A stretch of 64,000 nucleotides of DNA. Origin: a bacterium. Its GTDB lineage: Bacteria; Actinomycetota; UBA4738; HRBIN12. The stretch spans positions 159-64,158 of the forward strand of contig JBKPTC010000031.1 in the NCBI GenBank assembly GCA_046735355.1. Reading direction: 5' to 3'. This document shows, in pieces, positions 43,711 through 53,663 of this stretch (its first letter is position 1; every line of letters begins with the position of its first letter). The translations under genes and the position numbers were made by a program. The notes under the pieces were generated by a model that saw nothing but the letters and a program-made list of their open reading frames with translations, was not told the DNA's origin and did no database searches.

Positions 43711-44556
43711 TTAACTGCGGTCGAGCGGCCGGGTGAGGCAGGTCGGGCCCCCGTCGCCCTTGCGTGAGATCTCGTCGCCCTCATACGTCCGGACGTCGAC
43801 GCCCGCGGCTTCCATCCGGCGGCGCGTCTCGTCGTTGCCCTCGAGCGCGAGGGCGACGCGCGGACCGAGCGCGAGCACGTTCGGCCCCATCGTCTCGAAC
43901 TCGTCCGTCGGCACCTCGACGATCCCGATGCTGCGCACGCGGAGGAGCTCGACGAGATGGCTCGGCATCAGCGGGGGATAGCCGACGACGAGGTCGACGT
44001 CGAGCGGGCTCAGCAGCGACAGGAGATGGAGGCATTCGCCGGGCCCGTTCAGATGCGGAAGGTCGAACGCGACAACGTCCGTGTCGGGAAGGAGCGATCG
44101 GAGACCTGCGATCCCCGCGTCGTTCGTTCGATACGAGCGGCCGACGACGAGCGTTCGCTCGTCGAGCCAGAACATGTCGCCGCCCTCGGCGGTAGCCGGC
44201 TCCTCGAGCCGCCCGACCACCGCAACGCCCGCGTCGGACAGGTCCTCGGCGAGGGCGGCGGGCTCCTCGCGGCGGCCGGGCTTGCCGGGGCGGAGCAGGA
44301 TCGCGCCGCGATCCGTCATCAGGACCGGGTCGTACGCGTAGATCGCGTCGGGATCACCCTCGACCGGCGTGGTGCCGACGACGACCTCGGCGCCCGCGAC
44401 CTCGAGCTCGGCTCGGAACGCCTCGTGTTCTGCCGCGGCGCGCATCGGATCGGGCTCGGCTCGCCATCCGTAGTCGCGCCACGCGAGGTGGTCGTTTGGT
44501 TGCGGCGCGCGGACGAGCACGCGCTTGAGCGTCCCGGTCTGATCTTGTGCGGCCAC
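43711..44556 (-). CDS. Amidinotransferase-superfamily enzyme (DDAH / arginine deiminase-like).
   Basis: C-terminal catalytic motif GGPTCLTRPL (Cys nucleophile), preceded by the family His/Asp positions (FDLPHLNGPGECLHLLSLLSPLD). Confidence 0.75.
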   Translation of the reverse strand: MAAQDQTGTLKRVLVRAPQPNDHLAWRDYGWRAEPDPMRAAAEHEAFRAELEVAGAEVVVGTTPVEGDPDAIYAYDPVLMTDRGAILLRPGKPGRREEPAALAEDLSDAGVAVVGRLEEPATAEGGDMFWLDERTLVVGRSYRTNDAGIAGLRSLLPDTDVVAFDLPHLNGPGECLHLLSLLSPLDVDLVVGYPPLMPSHLVELLRVRSIGIVEVPTDEFETMGPNVLALGPRVALALEGNDETRRRMEAAGVDVRTYEGDEISRKGDGGPTCLTRPLDRS

Positions 44557-44581
44557 GCGCGCAGGCTACCGGACGACGTCG

Positions 44582-44965
44582 CTACCGGTTCCGGAGCGCC
44601 GGCGCCGCCATCGCGAAGTACTCGAGGAGCTCGCCCTTGTACGGCTCCGGCGGATCGAGCTCGTCGACCGCCTCGCGCATCTGCGCGAGCCATCGGCCGG
44701 CGACGTCCTCGTTGATCCCGAACGGCGCGTGTCGCATCCGGAGCGCGGGATGCCCGCGTTCCTCGTGGTACGTGCTCCGGCCGCCCCAATACTGAGCGAG
44801 GAACAACGTGAGCTTTCGGCGCGCGTCGGACAGGTCGTTCGGATCGGGATACGTGGCGAGCAGGACGTCGTCCCGCTCGACGCCGGCGTAGAAGCGTTCG
44901 ACGAGCCGTTCGAAGAACGGCATGCCGCCGACGGCGTCGTACAGCGTTTCCGGAGCGTCGCGCAC
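44582..44965 (-). CDS. Truncated (2/2) haemoglobin, group II-like.
   Basis: TLYDAVGGMPFFERLVERFYAGVERDDVLLATYP...RKLTLFLAQYWGGRSTYHEERGHPALRMRHAPFGI shows the trHb signature with the proximal His. Confidence 0.85.
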   Translation of the reverse strand: MRDAPETLYDAVGGMPFFERLVERFYAGVERDDVLLATYPDPNDLSDARRKLTLFLAQYWGGRSTYHEERGHPALRMRHAPFGINEDVAGRWLAQMREAVDELDPPEPYKGELLEYFAMAAPALRNR

Positions 44966-45004
44966 GGATCGAGTGTAGAAGCCGAGGGCAGCGTGTCGGC
45001 CGAC

Positions 45005-45945
45005 TCACCTCGAGACGACGGGAGCCTCCCGCGGTTCCGAGGACGGGCGTCCGATGCGCGGCCATCCGTCCCGCCACTCGACCGGATCGAGCAGCATGAC
45101 GCGCGGGCCGAGCCGCCTCGAGCGCATCGCGTGGTAAAGCATCCAGTCGGTGCCCGCGTCGTCGCGGACGATCGCGCAGTGGCCGGGCGCGATCCACCGA
45201 CCGTCCGTCGATTCGAGGATCGGGTTTCCGGCGAACCGTTCGAAGTCCTCGAGCGGCGACGCGGCGCGGGACACCGCGACGGCGTAGTGCGGGTCGGCGT
45301 ACATGCAACACACGTCGCCGGAGGTGAACAGGTAGATCCGGCCGTCGCGCTCGAGCATCCAGGGGCCCTCGACCACGCTGTCGTAGCCCGTGCCCTCCTC
45401 GCCGATCGGGAGCAGCACCGCGCGACCGTCGCCGGCGGGGCGCACCCCGTCTCGATCGATCGGCGCGACCTTGACCTGGTTCTCCTCGCTCCAGACGAAG
45501 AACCGCTCGCCGCGCGCACGCGTGAGCACGTTGGCGTCGATGCGTTCGTGCTCGCCGTCGATCAGGTGAGCCGGCTCGGGCTCGAACGGTCCCTCCGGTC
45601 GATCGGCGACGGCGAGGCCGAGCTGCATCTTTTGCGTGGCTCGATCCTCGATCGACAGATACAGCACGTATCGGCCGCGGACGAGCTCGATGTGCGGCGC
45701 CCACGACGCTCGTCTGCCCCACGGCGGCAGTCGCGGAAGTGCGTCGCCGACGAACGTCCACTCGACGAGGTTCTCGGAGCGAAGGACGGGCACCCAGACG
45801 CGGCGCCGGCGGTAGTACGTCATCGTCGTGTAGCACCAGAACACGCCGTTCGGATCGCGGACCACGGACGGGTCGGGTGCTACGTGGTCGAAGACCGGGT
45901 TCGTGTACGTTCGCCCGCCTCGCGCCGAAGCCGCGACTACTGGTT
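45005..45945 (-). CDS. Glycoside hydrolase family 43. No canonical start codon sits upstream of the conserved N-terminus.
   Basis: TYTNPVFDHVAPDPSVVRDPNGVFWCYTT...SENLVEWTFVGDAL...WAPHIELVRGRYVLYLS...SVVEGPWMLERDGRIYLFTS. The in-frame region upstream of NPVF has no ATG, GTG or TTG before the upstream gene's stop. Confidence 0.65.
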
Positions 45946-47079
45946 CGAGCTCCAGCGGAGCAGTGCGCCGACGCCGTCCGTGAGACCGGTCCCGGCGGGC
46001 ACCAGCCGGATGCCGGCCGCCGTGCCGATCGCCGCGCGGATCACCGCGTCGATGCGACGGACCTCGATCGGCCGCTCGACGCCGAGCGCCTCGAGGTCCT
46101 CGCGCCGAGCCGCGACGGGTACGGCCTCGGACCCGACCCACACGGTCGCGCCGTCCTCGAGGTCCTCGTGCAGCAGGAGCACCGCGACCTGCGACGACGA
46201 CAGCGCGGTCAGCATCGCGTCCGCGCCCTCGGTCGCCAGGTCGCGCTGCCCGCTCTCCTCGCGGAACCGCTCGACGATCGCGCGCGTCTCGCCCTCGACG
46301 AACCGGTCGAGGACCTCCTGGGCCTCGGCCGGCATCATCGGCCCCGAGCCCTCCCACGGGCGCTCGCCGGGAACGATCTCGACCGGCAGATCGAACTCGG
46401 ACGGCCACGAGTCCTGGATCAGCGTCACGGCGCGGACGTCGCCGGCGAGCATCACGAGACGCGCCTCGATCCGACCGGCGAGCCGCGCGATCGCCTGCGC
46501 AACGTCCTGCGCGTTCTCCTGCCACGTGTTCTCGGCGCGTTCCTGGTACCGGCGCTGCGACCAGCCGCCCGGCCCGACCTTGCTGATCGTCGAGTCGTCG
46601 CCCTTCACCTCGCGCTCGACGTCAGGCGTGTCCTCTCCCGCGCGCTCGAAGCCGTACAGGGTCGCTCCGGTTCGATCGGCGAGCGCGACGACGAACGGGA
46701 CCGACGTCTGCCGCCATCGCAACACCTGCTCCAGACGAGGGAGCGGCTCCCAGAACGCCTCATCGGTCGGTCCGGGGAGCGAGCCGTGCTCGACGTGCCG
46801 GACCCCCGAGGCGTCGGCGATCACCACGAGGCCGTCGCCGGACAGATGGGCATCCGGGATGACCGGGTCGACCGCGGCGAGCACGTCCTCGGGGACGTCG
46901 CAGTTGTCGGCGAGGTCCGAGCGCAGCGTGCGCCATCGCTGGTCGCTCCGCTGTTGGGCGTTCTCGATGCCGCTCTCGGTCGTCATCACGACGGTGAGGA
47001 ACGGACCCTCGCCCGAGGCGAGGTCCGACAGATCGGCCGGCGCGACGGCGCCGGCGGGCAGAGCTTCGGAGGTCTCCAT
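45937..47079 (-). CDS. Bacterial eRF1/Pelota-like (release-factor-like) domain protein, with GGW in place of the GGQ motif.
   Basis: N-terminal GPFLTVVMTTESGIENAQQR. Central SKVGPGGWSQRRYQERAEN aligns with eRF1 domain-2 HGRGGQSALRFARLR. Divergent from the MFS gene. Confidence 0.6.
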   Translation of the reverse strand: METSEALPAGAVAPADLSDLASGEGPFLTVVMTTESGIENAQQRSDQRWRTLRSDLADNCDVPEDVLAAVDPVIPDAHLSGDGLVVIADASGVRHVEHGSLPGPTDEAFWEPLPRLEQVLRWRQTSVPFVVALADRTGATLYGFERAGEDTPDVEREVKGDDSTISKVGPGGWSQRRYQERAENTWQENAQDVAQAIARLAGRIEARLVMLAGDVRAVTLIQDSWPSEFDLPVEIVPGERPWEGSGPMMPAEAQEVLDRFVEGETRAIVERFREESGQRDLATEGADAMLTALSSSQVAVLLLHEDLEDGATVWVGSEAVPVAARREDLEALGVERPIEVRRIDAVIRAAIGTAAGIRLVPAGTGLTDGVGALLRWSSNQ

Positions 47080-47192
47080 GCGGCACCCGTTCCCGAAGAG
47101 GGCCGCGGCGAACCGCGCCTCGCGTGCGACGGGCCACGATCGCATGGGTCGTCCGACCGCGCGCAGCGCGACGCGGCTGCGATGCTGTCGCT

Positions 47193-48407
47193 ATGGCGAC
47201 GACCGGCGAGCCCGCGCGACACGCCGGCGATCCCGCCGCCGGGCTGGCGGGCGATCCTGCGCTCCGGTGGCTGTATGTCCTCCAGGGCCTCGAGGGCGCG
47301 GCGTTCATCCCGTTCTACGTGCTCTTACTCCGCGATCGAGGGCTCCCGGCCGACCGCATCGGCCTCGTGCTCGCGGTGACGTCGCTCGCCGGCGTCGCGG
47401 CGACGCCGTTCTGGAGCCACGCGGCCGACATGCGCCTCGGCAGCGTGCACACGCTCCAGCTCGCCTGCACGATCGCGTGCGTCGGCGGGCTGGCGCTCAT
47501 GACGACCGGCTCGAGCCCGCTCGCGATCGGGGCGGTCGCCGTCGTGCTCGGCGCTGCGCAGGGACCGCAGACAGCCATCACCGACGCGCTGGCGCTCACC
47601 GAGCTCGGTCCGGCGCGTCTGATCGAGTACGGGACGTTCCGCGTCTGGGCGAGCGTCGGCTGGGGGATCGGCGCGGTCGGCTTCGGTGCCCTGTTCGCGG
47701 CGGCCGGGCTCGGCGTCCTGCTCCCGGTGTACGCGGTCGCGCTCGGGGTGTTCGCGCTGTTCGTCGCCCGCTTCCCGAGCCGTCACGCCGCCGGGGCGGC
47801 TTCGAGCGGCCGCTTCGGCGCGGTCGGCGACGCGTTCGGCTCGGCGCGCGTCCCGGTGTTCCTCCTCGGCGTGCTGGTGCTCGCGACGTCGACGCACGCG
47901 GCGTGGGACTTCGTGCCGCTCCGGATCGTCTCGGGCGGCGGCGGTCCGTTCCTCGTCGGCGTCTCGAGCGGCGTGAGCGCGTTCGTCGAGATCCCGTTCA
48001 TGCGGTCGACGCCGAGCCTGGTGGAGCGGTTCGGGCTCGAGCGGGTGTTCCTCGCCGGCGCGATCGTGTACGCCGCCGCCTCGGTCGCGTGGTCGCTCAC
48101 GGCCAACGCGGTCGTCGTGACGGTGATCCGCATCGCGATCGGCGTCGGGTTCGGGCTGGTGTATCCGTCGCTCGTGGTGATCACCGGGCGCCTCGTCCCG
48201 GCGCGCGTCCGCAACAGCGGTCAGGCGTTGCTGGCGATCTGCTCGTTCGGGCTGGCGCCCGTGATCGGCGGCGCGGTCGGGGGGTTCGTGTACCAACACG
48301 TCGGACCGGCGCAGCTGTTCGCCGGCTCGGCGGTCGGCATCGCGGCCGGCGCCGCCGTCGTGTGGAGCGTCGCCCGAGGACCCGAGGTGCGTTCGGATTC
48401 CGACTGA
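47193..48407 (+). CDS. MFS transporter.
   Basis: 12 predicted TM segments, two 6-TM halves. The exact start is uncertain (47124 or 47193). Confidence 0.8.
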   Translation: MATTGEPARHAGDPAAGLAGDPALRWLYVLQGLEGAAFIPFYVLLLRDRGLPADRIGLVLAVTSLAGVAATPFWSHAADMRLGSVHTLQLACTIACVGGLALMTTGSSPLAIGAVAVVLGAAQGPQTAITDALALTELGPARLIEYGTFRVWASVGWGIGAVGFGALFAAAGLGVLLPVYAVALGVFALFVARFPSRHAAGAASSGRFGAVGDAFGSARVPVFLLGVLVLATSTHAAWDFVPLRIVSGGGGPFLVGVSSGVSAFVEIPFMRSTPSLVERFGLERVFLAGAIVYAAASVAWSLTANAVVVTVIRIAIGVGFGLVYPSLVVITGRLVPARVRNSGQALLAICSFGLAPVIGGAVGGFVYQHVGPAQLFAGSAVGIAAGAAVVWSVARGPEVRSDSD

Positions 48408-48422: not shown

Positions 48423-50534
48423 CTAGTCGAGCCTGTACACCCGCTCCTCGTACTCACGCATCATGCGCGTCGCGCCGAACCGAGGGCCGACGGTGCGCAT
48501 CGACGCCCGCACCTTCTCGAGCCAGGCGCGAGGAACGCCGTCGTCGTCTCGGTCGCAGAACAACGGAACGACCTCTCGCTCGATGAGGTCGAACAGCGTC
48601 GCGCAGTCCCGCTCGTCCTGCTCCCACCACGGAAGCGACGAGTCGCTGTCGATCCCCCAGCCGTTCTGCCCGTCGAACGCCTCGGCCCACCATCCGTCGA
48701 GCACGGAGAGGTTGATGCCGCCGTTCATGGACGACTTCATGCCGCTTGTGCCGCTCGCCTCCATCGGCGGTCGGGGCATGTTGACCCAGACGTCGCATCC
48801 GGCGACGAGTCGTCGGGCCATCGCCATGTCGTAGTCCTCGAGGAACACGAGCCGCGCGCCGACCTCCGCCGGCCAGCCCTCGCGGAACAGCCGGGCCAGG
48901 GTGCCCTTCGCCTCCGCGTCCTTCGGGTGCGCCTTGCCGGCGATCACGAACTGCACGGTGTCCGGTTTGGCGAGCAGCGCCGAGACGCGGTCGACGTCGG
49001 AGAACAGCAGAAAGAGGCGCTTGTACGTCGCGACGCGCCGCGCGAACCCGAGCGTGAGGCGTTCCTCCTCGAGCCCGGACAACACCGTGTCGAGGCTGTC
49101 GCGCGACTCGTACCGCGACAGCCGCGCCGAGAGGTCCTGGTCGCGCGCGTATCGGACCAGTTGCCGCCGGAGCTCCTGCCGCACCGCCCACAGTTCGACG
49201 TCCGGCACGTCGTCGATCGGGGTCCACGCGGCCGGATCGTCCGGACGCGAACGCCAGTCGGCCGGGAGGTACGCGTCGAGCAGGGCGCGCATCTCCGGCG
49301 ACATCCAGGTGGGCACGTGCACGCCGTTCGTGACGTGTCCGATCGGAACGTCGTCGACCGCCCGGTCCGGCCACACGCGCTGCCACATCGATCTCGCGAC
49401 CTGTCCGTGGAGCCGGCTGACCGCGACGGACGATCTCGACATCCGAAGCGCCAGCGACGTCATCCCGATCTCGTCCGTCGAATCGACGCGTCCGAGCTCG
49501 GATATCCGCCCACGCCAGCCGGAGAACGACTCACCGAGCACGTCGACCACCTCATCCGTCGCGTACGCCTCGTTGCCGGCCGGCACGGGTGTGTGCGTGG
49601 TGAAGACGGTCGCGCGTCTCGCGCGGTCGATCGCGTCCTCCACCGAGCTTCCGGCGACGACGTGCTCACGCGCGAGCTCCAGCGGCGCGAACGCTCCGTG
49701 GCCCTCGTTCACGTGGATCACGTCCGGCGAGACGCCGAGCGCCCGCAGCGCGCGCATGCCGCCCACGCCGAGCATCGCGTACTGCTCGAGCCGGATGGCC
49801 GGATCGCCGACGTAGAGCCGGCCGGTGATCCAGCGCTCGAGCGTCCCGTTCTCCGCAACCTGCGCGTCGAGCAGATACAGCGGCACGCGCCCGATCCTCG
49901 CGCACCAGATCTGCGCCACGACGTCCCGATCGCGGATCGGGACCGAGATCCGCAGCGGCGACCCGCCCCGTGTGACGAGCGCCAACGGAAGGGCGTTCGC
50001 GTCGACGTCCGTCCAGAACTCCTGCTGCCACCCGTTCGGGTCGATCCGCTGACGGAACACGCCCTTGCCGTACAGGATCCCGACGCCGACGACCGGAAGG
50101 CCTCGGTCCGACGACTCCTTCAGGATGTCTCCCGCCAGGACGCCGAGGCCGCCCGAGTAGATCGGGAGCGACCTGTGGACGCCGAACTCCGCGCAGACGA
50201 ACGCGACGGCGGGCACGTCCGCATCGGACCGTTCGCGATTGGCGCGGACACGCTCGGCGAGCGCCCGCGCCCGTGCGAGGAACTCGTCATCCGAGGCGAG
50301 CTCGCGAAGTCGCGCACCGGGCGTTTGCTCCAGCACCTGGACGGGGTTGCCGCTGTAGAACCAGTAGCGCCCCGGGTCGATCGACTGGAACACCTCGCGA
50401 CCGTCGGGCATCCACGACCACGCGAAGTCGTACGCGGCGTGCGCGAGCGGCGCCAACTCGGCCGGGATCTTGGCGGCGAGCGACTCCGCGGCGCGCTCGA
50501 GGTCGTCGTCGCCCGGGTACGGCATGCGACGCAT
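48423..50534 (-). CDS. glgP: Alpha-glucan phosphorylase (GT35, GlgP/MalP-like).
   Basis: PLP-lysine motif EASGTSGMKSSMNGG. HVNEGHGAFAPLELAREH. About 700 aa. Confidence 0.9.
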   Translation of the reverse strand: MRRMPYPGDDDLERAAESLAAKIPAELAPLAHAAYDFAWSWMPDGREVFQSIDPGRYWFYSGNPVQVLEQTPGARLRELASDDEFLARARALAERVRANRERSDADVPAVAFVCAEFGVHRSLPIYSGGLGVLAGDILKESSDRGLPVVGVGILYGKGVFRQRIDPNGWQQEFWTDVDANALPLALVTRGGSPLRISVPIRDRDVVAQIWCARIGRVPLYLLDAQVAENGTLERWITGRLYVGDPAIRLEQYAMLGVGGMRALRALGVSPDVIHVNEGHGAFAPLELAREHVVAGSSVEDAIDRARRATVFTTHTPVPAGNEAYATDEVVDVLGESFSGWRGRISELGRVDSTDEIGMTSLALRMSRSSVAVSRLHGQVARSMWQRVWPDRAVDDVPIGHVTNGVHVPTWMSPEMRALLDAYLPADWRSRPDDPAAWTPIDDVPDVELWAVRQELRRQLVRYARDQDLSARLSRYESRDSLDTVLSGLEEERLTLGFARRVATYKRLFLLFSDVDRVSALLAKPDTVQFVIAGKAHPKDAEAKGTLARLFREGWPAEVGARLVFLEDYDMAMARRLVAGCDVWVNMPRPPMEASGTSGMKSSMNGGINLSVLDGWWAEAFDGQNGWGIDSDSSLPWWEQDERDCATLFDLIEREVVPLFCDRDDDGVPRAWLEKVRASMRTVGPRFGATRMMREYEERVYRLD

Positions 50535-50535
50535 C

Positions 50536-51471
50536 CTACGAAGCTCGGATCGGCGCGCCCGACCGGGCTCCGGGCAACCGCTGCTCGAGCGTCAGGACGT
50601 CCGCGAACCGATCGCCATCGCGCTCGATCCGCGCGAGCGCCTCGTCCGGGCCGGGCAGCAGCTGTGCCACCTCGCCGGCGGCCGCTCGTTCGACGTCCTC
50701 CCACGCGACCGGCATCGAGACCGTCGGCACCGGCGTGGCGCGCAGCGAGTACGGCGCGACGGTCGACCGGAACGCGTCGTTCTGGAGCCAGTCGAGCAGG
50801 ATCTTGCCGTGCCGGATCGACCGGCTCTGCCGGTCCACGACGTCGTCGCGGGCGCGCACGAGGAACGAGGCGAACGTTCGCGCGAAGGCCTTCGTCTCCT
50901 CGAACGTGTGCGGCGTGTTCAACGGAACGACGACGTGGAGGCCCTTCGACCCGGAGCTCTTCGCGAACGCGCGCAGCCCCGCCGCCTCGAGGAGCTCGCG
51001 CACCTGGCTTCCGACGGCGCAGGCATCGGCCAGCGTGGCCGGCTCGCCCGGATCCAGATCGAACACGACCACCGGCGCGAGCGCCGGCTCCTCGGCGCGG
51101 AACAGGAACGGATGGAGCTCGATCGTTCCCTGGTTGCCCACCCACAGCAACGTCGCGGCGTCGTCGACGACGCAGTGCCGATGGTGGCGTCCGTCCGCGC
51201 CGTCGTACTCGTACAGCGGCATCCAGTCCGGTGCGCCGCGGCACTCGTTCTGCCACCAGCCCTTCGCCTCGACGCCCTCCGGATACCGCCACATCGTGAG
51301 CGGCCGGCGGCGAAGATGGGGCAGGAGCACGGGGGCAACGCGGGCGTAGTACTCGAGCATCGCGCCCTTCGTGAACCCGGTCGACGGCCACAGGACGCGG
51401 TCCAGATGCGTCAGCCGGACGACACGTCCGTCGACCTCGACATGCCGGGCTGCCTCGGCTCCCGCGCTCAT
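50536..51471 (-). CDS. LigD-type primase-polymerase (NHEJ polymerase domain) as a stand-alone ORF.
   Basis: VDGRVVRLTHLDRVLWPSTGFTKGAMLEYY...LLWVGNQGTIELHPF...VVFDLDPGEP...SSGSKGLHVVVPL shows the LigD Pol catalytic motifs. Confidence 0.85.
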   Translation of the reverse strand: MSAGAEAARHVEVDGRVVRLTHLDRVLWPSTGFTKGAMLEYYARVAPVLLPHLRRRPLTMWRYPEGVEAKGWWQNECRGAPDWMPLYEYDGADGRHHRHCVVDDAATLLWVGNQGTIELHPFLFRAEEPALAPVVVFDLDPGEPATLADACAVGSQVRELLEAAGLRAFAKSSGSKGLHVVVPLNTPHTFEETKAFARTFASFLVRARDDVVDRQSRSIRHGKILLDWLQNDAFRSTVAPYSLRATPVPTVSMPVAWEDVERAAAGEVAQLLPGPDEALARIERDGDRFADVLTLEQRLPGARSGAPIRAS

Positions 51472-52571
51472 CCGTTCGCGGCCGCGACTTCGACCGCGAC
51501 CGTGGCCGCCGAACCCGCCTCACCGGAGGCGAGCTGGTCGAGCGTGCATGATCGCGCGTCCCGGTCGGGGCGCCAGCGGACCAGGCGAGCCGGATGGCGG
51601 AACCGCGCCCCGTCGACCTGATCGAACGCGACCTCGACGACGCGCTCGGGCCGGAGCGGCACCCAGTCGTGCTCCATCTCGGGGGTCCACCTCGCGGCCG
51701 ATCCCTTCAGGCGCCCCGTCGGACTTCTGCCGATGAGGAAGCCGTTCGCCCACGGATGGCCCCGGAGCGGCACACGGAGCGGCGCGAGGTCCTCGACGAG
51801 GTCGACCCGTTCACGGTCGGAGAACGCCTGCACGACACCGACGTGGTGCAACGCACCGCGGTCGTCGTACAACGCGAGCAGCAGCGAGCTGAGCGCCGGT
51901 GTATCGACGTACGGCCGGTAGCCCGCGACGACGCAGTCGATCGTGTGCAGCGTCTTGACCTTCATCATCGCGCGCTTGCCGGGCCGATACGTGAGCCCGA
52001 CCTCCTTGGCGATGACGCCGTCGATGCCCTCGCCGGGCGGCCGCTCGAGCCAGCCGCGAGCCACTGCGGGATCGGTCGTCGCGGGCGTCAGGGCGACCCT
52101 CGGCGGCGCCGACCGCAGCAGCGCCTCGAGGCGGGCGCGCCGTTCCGCGAAGCCTCGCTCCCGGAGGTCCTCGCCGCCGACGGCGAGCACGTCGAACGCG
52201 ACGAACGTGGCCGGCGTCTCGTCGGCGAGGCGACGCACACGCGACGCCGCGGGATGCAGTCGAGCCATCAAGGCGTCGAAGTCGAAGCCTCCGTCGCGCC
52301 GCACCACGATCTCGCCGTCGAGCACGACCGACGAGGGATCCATCGAGCGGAGCGCCTCGACCAGCTCCGGGAAGTACCGCGAGAGCGGCCGGTCGTGCCT
52401 GCTCCGGAGATCGACGTCGTCGCGCTCGCAGAAGGCGAGGCACCGGAAGCCGTCCCACTTCGGCTCGAACAGATGCTCGCCCTCGGCCGGGAGCTCGCGC
52501 GTCAGGCGGGCGAGCATCGGCCGAACGGGAGGACGCACGACGGAGGCGGCGGCGGTTCCGACCGAGCGCAT
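51468..52571 (-). CDS. ATP-dependent DNA ligase (LigD ligase domain) as a separate ORF, 4-bp overlap with the Pol ORF.
   Basis: ATG at the complement of 52569-52571. FEPKWDGFRCLAF is the KxDG adenylation motif. LDGEIVV, FVAFDVL and GIDGVIAKE are motifs III to V. The long ORF 51468-54956 is artefactual beyond 52571. Confidence 0.85.
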   Translation of the reverse strand: MRSVGTAAASVVRPPVRPMLARLTRELPAEGEHLFEPKWDGFRCLAFCERDDVDLRSRHDRPLSRYFPELVEALRSMDPSSVVLDGEIVVRRDGGFDFDALMARLHPAASRVRRLADETPATFVAFDVLAVGGEDLRERGFAERRARLEALLRSAPPRVALTPATTDPAVARGWLERPPGEGIDGVIAKEVGLTYRPGKRAMMKVKTLHTIDCVVAGYRPYVDTPALSSLLLALYDDRGALHHVGVVQAFSDRERVDLVEDLAPLRVPLRGHPWANGFLIGRSPTGRLKGSAARWTPEMEHDWVPLRPERVVEVAFDQVDGARFRHPARLVRWRPDRDARSCTLDQLASGEAGSAATVAVEVAAANG

Positions 52572-52610
52572 CAGCACTGTGTACCCGATGTCCTCCGATA
52601 CCCTCGACCC

Positions 52611-53663
52611 ATGACGGTCTTCGACCTCTCGTTCGACGCACTCTCCGAGCGACTCGCCTCGTGGGGCGAGCCGCCGTTCCGAGCGAGGCAGGTGCACGAC
52701 GGCATCTGGAAGCGCGGCAAGAGGTTCGAGGAGATGAGCGACGTTCCGGGTCCGCTCCGTGCGCGTCTGGCCGAGGAGCTCCCGCTCGGCCTCGAGGTGG
52801 TCGAGGAGCGGACCGCCGACGACGGCTCGACACGCAAGGCGCTCCTTCGTCTCGGCGGCCGTCACCTCGTCGAGGTGGTGCTGATGGGCTATCCGGACCG
52901 AGTGACCGCGTGCGTCTCGTCGCAGTCGGGCTGCGCGATGGGATGCGGCTTCTGCGCGACCGGACAGATGGGGCTTCGAAACAACCTGACGGCCGGCGAG
53001 ATCGCCGTCCAGGCTTGGTGGGCACGACGCGAGGCCAACGCGCTTCCGGCGTCGACGCCGAGACGTCTCACAAACGTCGTGTTCATGGGGATGGGCGAGC
53101 CGCTCGCCAACGAGCGGAACACCTTCGCGTCGCTCGAGCGACTGACGCAGCCCGACGGGTTCGGCCTCGGCGACCGCCACATCACGGTGTCGACCGTCGG
53201 CGTCGCACCCGCGATCCACCGGCTCGGCGAGCGATTCCCGCAGATCGGCCTCGCCGTGAGCCTGCACGCGGCCGACGACGACCTGCGGAACCGGCTCGTG
53301 CCGGTCAATCGGTTGTGGCCCCTCGCCGAGCTCGAGGCCGCCGTCCTTGCCTGGCGCCGAGCGACGCGCCGGCGGCCATCGATCGAGTGGGCGATGATCG
53401 GCCGGACGAACGACGGTGACGACCAGGCGCGCAAGCTGTCCGCGATCGCGCACCACCTCGGCGCGCACGTCAACCTCATCCCGCTCAACCCGACGCCCGG
53501 CTGGCCGACCCGGCCGAGCCCTCGCGAGCGCATCGAGCGGTTCGCGGCCGTGCTCCGGCGCTCCGGCGTCAACGTGACGGTCCGCGACACGCGCGGCCGC
53601 GAGATCGAGGCCGCCTGCGGTCAGCTGCGGTCCGAGCACGACCGCGCCTCGGCCATCGTCTGA
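52611..53663 (+). CDS. rlmN: 23S rRNA/tRNA adenine C2-methyltransferase RlmN (radical SAM).
   Basis: CVSSQSGCAMGCGFCATG radical-SAM cluster. MGMGEPLAN. C-terminal ACGQL catalytic Cys. Confidence 0.9.
   Translation: MTVFDLSFDALSERLASWGEPPFRARQVHDGIWKRGKRFEEMSDVPGPLRARLAEELPLGLEVVEERTADDGSTRKALLRLGGRHLVEVVLMGYPDRVTACVSSQSGCAMGCGFCATGQMGLRNNLTAGEIAVQAWWARREANALPASTPRRLTNVVFMGMGEPLANERNTFASLERLTQPDGFGLGDRHITVSTVGVAPAIHRLGERFPQIGLAVSLHAADDDLRNRLVPVNRLWPLAELEAAVLAWRRATRRRPSIEWAMIGRTNDGDDQARKLSAIAHHLGAHVNLIPLNPTPGWPTRPSPRERIERFAAVLRRSGVNVTVRDTRGREIEAACGQLRSEHDRASAIV

Follow-up and report, generated by a model that had tools for sequence, protein, structure and literature searches.

A bacterial Balon/Rv2629-like protein with a conserved tryptophan in place of the catalytic glutamine of aRF1: a putative ribosome hibernation factor

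The bacterial aeRF-1 (baeRF-1) clade was defined by Burroughs and Aravind (2019), who found the catalytic Gln to be absent from most of its families and regarded GGxSQ as the catalytic motif of the VLRF1 families (PMC6514570). Balon was later discovered on hibernating Psychrobacter ribosomes (Helena-Bueno et al. 2024; PMC10901736). Balon proteins have neither NIKS nor GGQ, which is listed among their characteristics, and they are associated with EF-Tu(GDP) on the ribosome; the peptidyl-transferase centre (PTC) is left inert, so that the nascent chain stays unreleased (PMC10901736). Two mycobacterial members, Rv2629 and MSMEG_1130, were shown to occupy the A site of M. smegmatis ribosomes and to lower translation in vitro ~15-fold, and the characterised proteins keep ribosomes stable rather than splitting them (PMC10901736). 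Balon genes occur in stress-operon contexts, and one mycobacterial copy adjoins a multidrug transporter (PMC10901736). A 2024 preprint holds that ribosome rescue by Balon remains possible.

Here we describe a 380-aa protein encoded in a 64-kb stretch of bacterial DNA (the window, by which we mean the whole stretch that was analysed). It is homologous to both aRF1 and Balon, has a three-domain, Balon-like fold, has lost the stop-codon motifs and carries, in a flexible loop, a conserved Trp in place of the catalytic Gln. The system itself is not new in kind: that bacterial aeRF1-like proteins have lost the catalytic Gln was already described in 2019 (PMC6514570), its absence is normal for the Balon/Rv2629 family, and the role of that family in hibernation at the A site was demonstrated in 2024 (PMC10901736). 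What the locus adds is a large clade, represented here for the most part by metagenome-assembled genomes (MAGs) of uncultured Actinomycetota/Acidimicrobiia, in which the aRF1 loop is almost unaltered except for the exchange of Gln for Trp.

Gene, family and predicted structure

In its longest form, the minus-strand open reading frame spans 45937..47145 and encodes 402 aa. We chose instead the ATG at 47079, which yields 380 aa, as the better-supported start, because Met1-Glu2 is kept in at least 95% of the homologues in an alignment of relatives. The frame closes with a TAG codon (45939..45937), and its GC3 of 0.92 is of coding type for a window of ~70% GC. The peptide GPFLTVVMTTES corresponds to residues 25-36 of the 380-aa protein and SKVGPGGWSQRRYQERAEN to residues 166-184. 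A search for a second paralogue within the 64-kb window returned none. The features of the locus are collected in Table 1.

Table 1. Features of the baeRF2 locus, in window coordinates
Feature	Position	Strand	Basis
baeRF family 2 / Balon-Rv2629-like protein, complete CDS	45937..47079	minus	380 aa + TAG stop
N-terminal domain, ~residues 1-125	46705..47079	minus	predicted secondary structure; aligned to Rv2629 residues 5-110
Central RNase-H-fold domain, residues 128-278	46246..46698	minus	Pfam baeRF_family2 match; aligned to aRF1/eRF1 domain 2; AlphaFold model
GGWSQ loop, residues 171-175	46555..46569	minus	translation; alignment to aRF1/eRF1
C-terminal domain, residues 279-380, Pelota / eRF1 domain 3 type	45940..46245	minus	
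Divergent intergenic region between baeRF2 and MFS genes, 113 bp	47080..47192		
MFS_1_like transporter, divergent	47193..48407	plus	Pfam; starts ATG 47193
Bacterial globin	44582..44965	minus	Pfam
DDAH/arginine-deiminase-like gene	43711..44556	minus	Pfam

The protein matches the Pfam model PF18844 (baeRF_family2) from end to end (profile positions 1-149 of 149), with 118.9 bits against a cut-off of 26.9 (E=2.6e-34). Two weaker models overlap this match, acVLRF1 (PF18859; 52.3 bits, cut-off 27.1) and baeRF_family10 (42.2 bits). Among the NCBIfam models the best match is to NF052289, "Rv2629 family ribosome hibernation factor", aligned over model positions 3-357 of 357 with E=1.5e-54; the score of 185.6 bits lies below the equivalog cut-off of 320. 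As judged from sequence scores, the protein is a distant member of the Balon/Rv2629 family and not an equivalog. The aRF1/eRF1 model TIGR03676 reaches 15.1 bits against a cut-off of 234.7, and the NCBIfam acVLRF1 model NF041024 22.1 bits against 125, with a match confined to residues 189-244 of the 402-aa form.

A family profile was built from 115 homologues and searched against all PDB sequences. The sole clear relative by sequence is chain z of 8V9K, "Ribosome hibernation factor Balon (Rv2629)", from Mycobacterium tuberculosis, which is found with E=8.4e-13 from the single sequence and with E=3.6e-48 from the family profile, over residues 5-364; identity between the two proteins is 24-28%. 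Neither MSMEG_1130 (8V9J/8V9L) nor the Balon of Psychrobacter urativorans (8RD8/8RDV/8RDW), both at 12-17% identity, is reached by the profile search of PDB sequences, and only fold comparison reaches both. The relatives, MAG proteins from Actinomycetota and Acidimicrobiales, have mixed public annotations, with "hypothetical protein" at one end and, at the other, "Vms1/Ankzf1 family peptidyl-tRNA hydrolase", a name given by PGAP to several of them; for the close relatives these annotations are unreliable. The first-pass annotation had likened the N-terminus to a host-attachment/Rv2629-like family. The N-terminal domain aligns to Rv2629; the host-attachment protein family gave no Pfam match at E<=0.01.

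The AlphaFold2 model (pLDDT 91.3, pTM 0.87) has the three-domain architecture of the aeRF1 superfamily. It matches Balon and aRF1/eRF1 structures over the full length, and its nearest structural neighbours are the solved Balon proteins, clearly apart from aRF1 and Pelota. The N-terminal domain is the counterpart of the domain that faces the decoding centre in aeRF1 and Balon, and the central domain that of the part reaching the PTC. Within the central domain, strands at residues 129-135, 138-144 and 154-159 are followed by a loop (160-174) and a long helix (175-203). The GGW motif thus sits between the third strand and the long helix, the place of GGQ in aeRF1, and this succession of strand, loop and long helix is how the aeRF1 superfamily's catalytic loop has been described (PMC6514570). 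The GGWSQ residues have pLDDT values of 60-73, which suggests that the loop is flexible in the predicted structure.

The C-terminal domain carries a two-strand insertion (~residues 312-323) and ends in an invariant GxGALLRW. Around the insertion, residues ~310-325 align to Rv2629 without gaps, with strands predicted at 312-315 and 322-323 and with Trp314 and Gly316 conserved; this segment is a candidate for the C-domain beta-hairpin through which Balon touches EF-Tu. A motif search found no NIKS, [NT]I[KR]S, YxCxxxF, GTS or GGQ. The literal dipeptide "HP" is also absent; a near-invariant His98, followed by G-S-L-P-G-P, aligns with EH-LIGPPP of Rv2629, and this His together with the Pro-rich stretch may be the "HP motif", by which the N domain of Balon contacts A1492 and A1913.

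The GGWSQ loop

The central and C-terminal domains are homologous to those of aRF1/eRF1 (profile E=1e-5, for example with A. pernix aRF1, PDB 3AGK), and the two groups have in common an ungapped loop, K-x-x-x-G-G-[Q/W]-S-Q-R-R-Y. The stretch K-V-G-P-G-G-W-S-Q-R-R-Y matches the GGQ loop of aRF1 and eRF1 column for column. The family profile (...rkvkaGGWsqrRyqeRaE...) aligns without gaps to KHKMGGQSQRRYERIIE of A. pernix aRF1 with E=9.9e-6 and to KKHGRGGQSALRFARLRME of human eRF1 with E ~3e-4, and therefore Trp173 occupies the column of the catalytic Gln. Gln175 follows two residues later, which gives the pattern GGxSQ. Compared with aRF1/eRF1, the protein thus has Trp for Gln and retains the GG, and NIKS, YxCxxxF and GTS are missing.

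The first-pass annotation had proposed this homology on inspection, and asked whether the exchange is kept in orthologues. It is kept. In a word-indexed search, GGW is present in 120 of 120 homologues among the matches listed, at 46-100% identity. To complement this search, 1.84 billion cluster representatives were searched exhaustively with HMMER; 3,619 of them match at E<=1e-3, and 950 reach E<=1e-30. Conservation was counted on the query plus the best 150 of the 3,619 representatives (n=151 aligned); loci that had been retrieved with a pattern containing GWSQRRYQ were left out of the motif counts, for which the unbiased HMMER set was used. Trp173 is found in 143 of the 151 sequences (95%), flanked by G171 in 142, G172 in 146, S174 in 138 and Q175 in 124 (82%); in the helix that follows, R177 and E183 are each present in 135 and W186 in 147. 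Close homologues are nearly invariant at G171, G172, W173, R177, R181 and E183. An alignment in which the loop is not homologous to GGQ and orthologues that retain GGQ were both looked for; neither was found, and Gln stands at position 173 in 0 of the 151 aligned sequences.

The size of the family and the conservation of GGW (143/151, with no GGQ) also refute the reading of the gene as a release factor decaying into a pseudogene, or of the likeness as mere chance, with GGW a private mutation of GGQ: nothing beyond the view of a single window speaks for it, the open reading frame is intact, the GC3 is of coding type and the fold is confidently predicted, and we give this reading practically no credence.

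The full GGWSQ is present in 117 of the 151 sequences, and the loop is degenerate in eight. His occupies the Q175 column in 11 representatives, and overall ~13% of those that bear GGW have H, A, K, T, N, S or M in place of Gln175, the Trp being retained. With the Trp more strongly conserved (143/151) than Gln175 (124/151), and with loops that have degenerated in 8/151, the alignment speaks more for a role in binding than for one in catalysis. A search of plasmid collections added two unannotated, distant family-2 homologues: the one from Nonomuraea has GGWSQKRYERA, and the one from Streptomyces chartreusis has lost the loop. Because of these two homologues, family 2 seems to have had GGWSQ ancestrally and to have kept it under selection.

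The loop of Rv2629 is different. It reads AGWNGYGDFQ, a derived form without S-Q-R-R-Y, whereas the window protein retains the aRF1-like GGWSQRRYQERAEN, which is almost invariant in its clade. Trp is found in the same column of both proteins (AGW in Rv2629, GGW here), and the SQ is absent from Rv2629. The loop GGWSQRRY is much closer to the GGQSQRRY of aRF1 than the Rv2629 loop is, and it is also much more constrained.

Proposed function and its alternatives

That the protein has a release-factor fold and yet is not a terminator, as the first-pass annotation had argued, agrees with its homology to aRF1, its predicted structure and its lack of GGQ, NIKS, YxCxxxF and GTS. The bacterial host, like other bacteria, is expected to terminate translation with RF1/RF2. 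We propose that the gene product is probably a Balon-type ribosome hibernation factor, that is, a non-hydrolytic blocker of the A site, a reading that we hold with appreciable room for doubt. It is favoured because the best models and structures are baeRF_family2, NF052289 (over the full length) and Rv2629. Rv2629 binds the A site, inhibits translation and has AGW; therefore, a Trp loop is compatible with a function in hibernation. Binding to the A site, inhibition of translation, contact with EF-Tu and lack of hydrolysis are properties that we infer for the window protein from Rv2629, MSMEG_1130 and the Psychrobacter Balon.

By analogy with these characterised relatives, the protein, with its three domains, would descend from archaeal aRF1 and would, under stress, settle in the A site of ribosomes that are idle or stalled. 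It would enter the site independently of mRNA, with the N domain touching the decoding centre and reading no stop codon. The central Trp loop would come to lie at the entrance of the PTC, where it would trigger no hydrolysis and would bar the access of tRNA and release factors, so that the peptide would not be released. The C domain would probably contact EF-Tu-GDP, and the ribosome would be kept inactive and protected until conditions improve. We can also speculate that the Trp is stacked on a base of rRNA or tRNA, such as A2602 or A76. Against this proposal weigh the NF052289 score below the equivalog cut-off, the low identity to Rv2629 and the aRF1-like GGxSQ loop, with which a catalytic or another role of the loop is possible. 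Sequence comparison also gave no certain assignment of the HP motif or the bL27 trap of Balon, and the gene context, with variable stress neighbours and no HPF/RaiA gene among those scanned, weighs on the same side.

The alternative that survives best makes the protein a VLRF1/Vms1-type hydrolase of peptidyl-tRNA, or a rescue factor of that type, that is active without need of a stop codon; Gln175, or the backbone at the position of the Trp, would then place the hydrolytic water. The main-chain amide at the site of the Gln is an important contributor to catalysis in bacterial release factors, and therefore the substitution of this Gln is no proof of inactivity. The acVLRF1/Vms1-ANKZF1-like hydrolases share with the window protein a GGxSQ-type loop and an overlapping Pfam match in the central domain, which for acVLRF1 exceeds its cut-off (52.3 vs 27.1 bits), and GGxSQ is treated as catalytic in VLRF1 families (PMC6514570). 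The loop and the next helix are moreover near-invariant and nearer to aRF1 than to Rv2629, the Nonomuraea member of family 2 has GGWSQ as well, and several relatives bear the PGAP hydrolase name, although we found no experiment behind that label.

Other evidence makes this alternative unlikely. The baeRF_family2 model fits far better (118.9 vs 52.3 bits), the NCBIfam acVLRF1 model remains well under its cut-off (22 bits vs 125), and both the N and the C domain are complete and Balon-like. Were Gln175 catalytic, one would expect it to be near-invariant; its conservation is 82%, however, and it is replaced in ~13% of the representatives that bear GGW. The SQ may be an inherited helix cap, as A. 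pernix aRF1 itself has GGQSQ. Finally, the nearest structures are all non-hydrolytic Balons, and Rv2629, a proven inhibitor, retains the Trp and lacks the SQ.

Pelota/Dom34 belongs to the same superfamily, likewise lacks the catalytic Gln and has a similar C domain, and the first-pass annotation had favoured a rescue role of this kind. As such a non-catalytic rescue factor, the protein would act on ribosomes that have stalled on damaged mRNA, entering their A site and favouring the splitting or recycling of subunits, with no storage of ribosomes. To our knowledge, the splitting partner ABCE1 is absent from bacteria. The structural alignment to Pelota extends over ~148-215 residues, against 352 for Balon, and the profile match is marginal (E=0.077) and limited to the C domain. 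No Sm-like N domain of the Pelota type was detected by Pfam or structural comparison, and the Balon relatives that have been characterised leave ribosomes unsplit and stabilise them (PMC10901736). We consider this alternative distinctly unlikely, and hibernation is better supported; termination is not the role of the protein, and splitting in the manner of Pelota is improbable.

A more speculative and rather unlikely proposal starts from the loop itself: the GGWSQ clade may preserve an ancestral, aRF1-like loop at the PTC that is not a passive plug, acting either as a peptidyl-tRNA hydrolase, independently of stop codons, through the Gln of GGxSQ or as a "bolt" through specific base stacking of the Trp. 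If the former were true, this would be a bacterial rescue enzyme of the aeRF1 type; if the latter, a Trp "bolt" in the PTC would be a mechanism distinct from both the lasso loop and the bL27 trap of the Psychrobacter Balon. Trp173, a residue in common with Rv2629, and Gln175 of GGxSQ are the mutational targets for PTC engagement and for residual hydrolysis.

Gene neighbourhood

Two further points of the first-pass annotation, that the gene diverges from an MFS transporter and lies upstream of a GH43 gene with no canonical start codon, are confirmed: the MFS gene begins with the ATG at 47193 on the plus strand, and no ATG, GTG or TTG is present at the expected N-terminus of GH43, where an ACG (45908-45910) may serve as the start. 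In the window, the genes that follow baeRF2 on the same strand are GH43, the bacterial globin and the DDAH/ADI-like gene. The three closest relatives with context (L002, L006 and the P0007 contig; 66-69% identity) have the divergent MFS gene, baeRF2, a globin, which in these relatives is a truncated globin, and a DDAH-like gene. The globin comes directly after baeRF2 in two of the three, and L002 has a DUF6311 gene at the place of GH43. The GH43 gene was therefore inserted into the cluster in a lineage-specific manner.

Within the divergent intergenic region, the 12-mer GGCTGCGATGCT (plus strand, 47175..47186) is invariant in two relatives, and conserved GCGGTT and GGGAAC blocks lie upstream of the baeRF2 ATG. 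A promoter scan of this region returned no sigma-70-like match, and a terminator scan and a search for inverted repeats in it gave nothing convincing.

The MFS gene is a conserved partner of baeRF2 only in the closest relatives. In those at 48-50% identity, baeRF2 is followed, sometimes after an SDR gene, by CsbD, an M20 peptidase and ThyX, and a glyoxalase-like gene often precedes it. Across 84 loci the neighbours vary and no partner is dominant; those that recur include CsbD (7 loci), an unannotated hydrophilic protein of 65 aa (8 loci), a BON/YtxH protein and an SRPBCC protein. No HPF/RaiA gene was found, either in the scan of the window genes or in the 14 neighbour clusters that recur most often over the 84 loci. 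The CsbD, BON/YtxH and SRPBCC neighbours, which are general-stress genes, are suggestive, in that they would be compatible with the stress-operon pattern of Balon genes, although they are inconsistent over the 84 loci. Other genes of the window encode an alpha-glucan phosphorylase-like protein, a LigD primase-polymerase, an RlmN-like radical-SAM protein, an AI-2E transporter and an ECF sigma factor.

The GH43 gene and its start codon

In the closest relatives (loci L002 and L006), a bacterial globin gene and then a DDAH/ADI-like gene directly follow the gene for the eRF1-related baeRF2 protein. In the corresponding part of the window (43711..47079) a GH43 gene stands in between, in a slot that L002 fills with a DUF6311 gene, and it thus appears to be a lineage-specific insertion. 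The reading frame of this GH43 gene holds no in-frame ATG, GTG or TTG from 46141 to 45865. The next candidate start is the GTG at 45865, the use of which would cost the conserved N-terminal TYTNPVFDHVAPDPS segment. Because residue 4 of the closest solved GH43 structure (4qqs_A) pairs with TYTNPV in the alignment, we place the natural N-terminus there. An ACG codon (45910..45908) lies at this expected N-terminus, and a spacer of 7 nt separates it from an upstream GAGG. This arrangement suggests a rare ACG start, an ATG-to-ACG mutation of the start codon, or an assembly error.

Features of the window and of a relative's locus
Feature	Coordinates	Strand	Remarks
GH43 gene	45005..45940	-	just downstream of baeRF2 gene
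12-mer GGCTGCGATGCT	47175..47186	+	inside intergenic region 47080..47192
Alpha-glucan phosphorylase-like gene (Phosphorylase + DUF3417) and stand-alone LigD primase-polymerase gene	48423..51519	-	
RlmN-like radical-SAM ORF	51552..53663	+	703 aa
Small Pro/Glu/Lys-rich protein	L019 6168..6365		also at 7 other loci

The baeRF2-MFS intergenic region and genes beyond it

The region separating the baeRF2 gene from the divergent MFS transporter gene contains an additional stretch of ~31 bp in the window, and a search of the region yielded neither a sigma-70-like promoter nor a clear operator palindrome. It also holds a 12-mer, identical in the window, L002 and L006, that sits 6-9 nt before the MFS start codon. 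Since its frame relative to the ATG is not preserved, this element is probably regulatory rather than coding.

Just past the MFS gene sit the alpha-glucan phosphorylase-like and LigD primase-polymerase genes; in actinobacteria, the functions of both are connected with starvation or dormancy. In the RlmN-like ORF, the RlmN_N and radical-SAM matches are confined to residue 357 onwards, reflecting either an over-extended start or a long unannotated N-terminal region.

Relatives of baeRF2 and a recurrent neighbor

NCBI/PGAP names for relatives (P0030, P0058 and P0100 among them) differ: some at 47-51% identity are called 'Vms1/Ankzf1 family peptidyl-tRNA hydrolase', while the label is 'baeRF2 domain-containing protein' or 'hypothetical protein' for others. 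Model scores and fold make the hydrolase name a probable over-annotation. A homolog of the Actinomycetota-type window gene, with 42% identity (L044), lies on a contig, CAZJSY010000043.1, binned as 'uncultured Burkholderiales bacterium', a placement that could be due to a binning error or to horizontal transfer. Immediately 3' of the baeRF2 genes in eight loci, we observed a small (~65 aa), hydrophilic, Pro/Glu/Lys-rich protein; it has no match in Pfam and could represent a partner or a stress protein that has so far gone unannotated.
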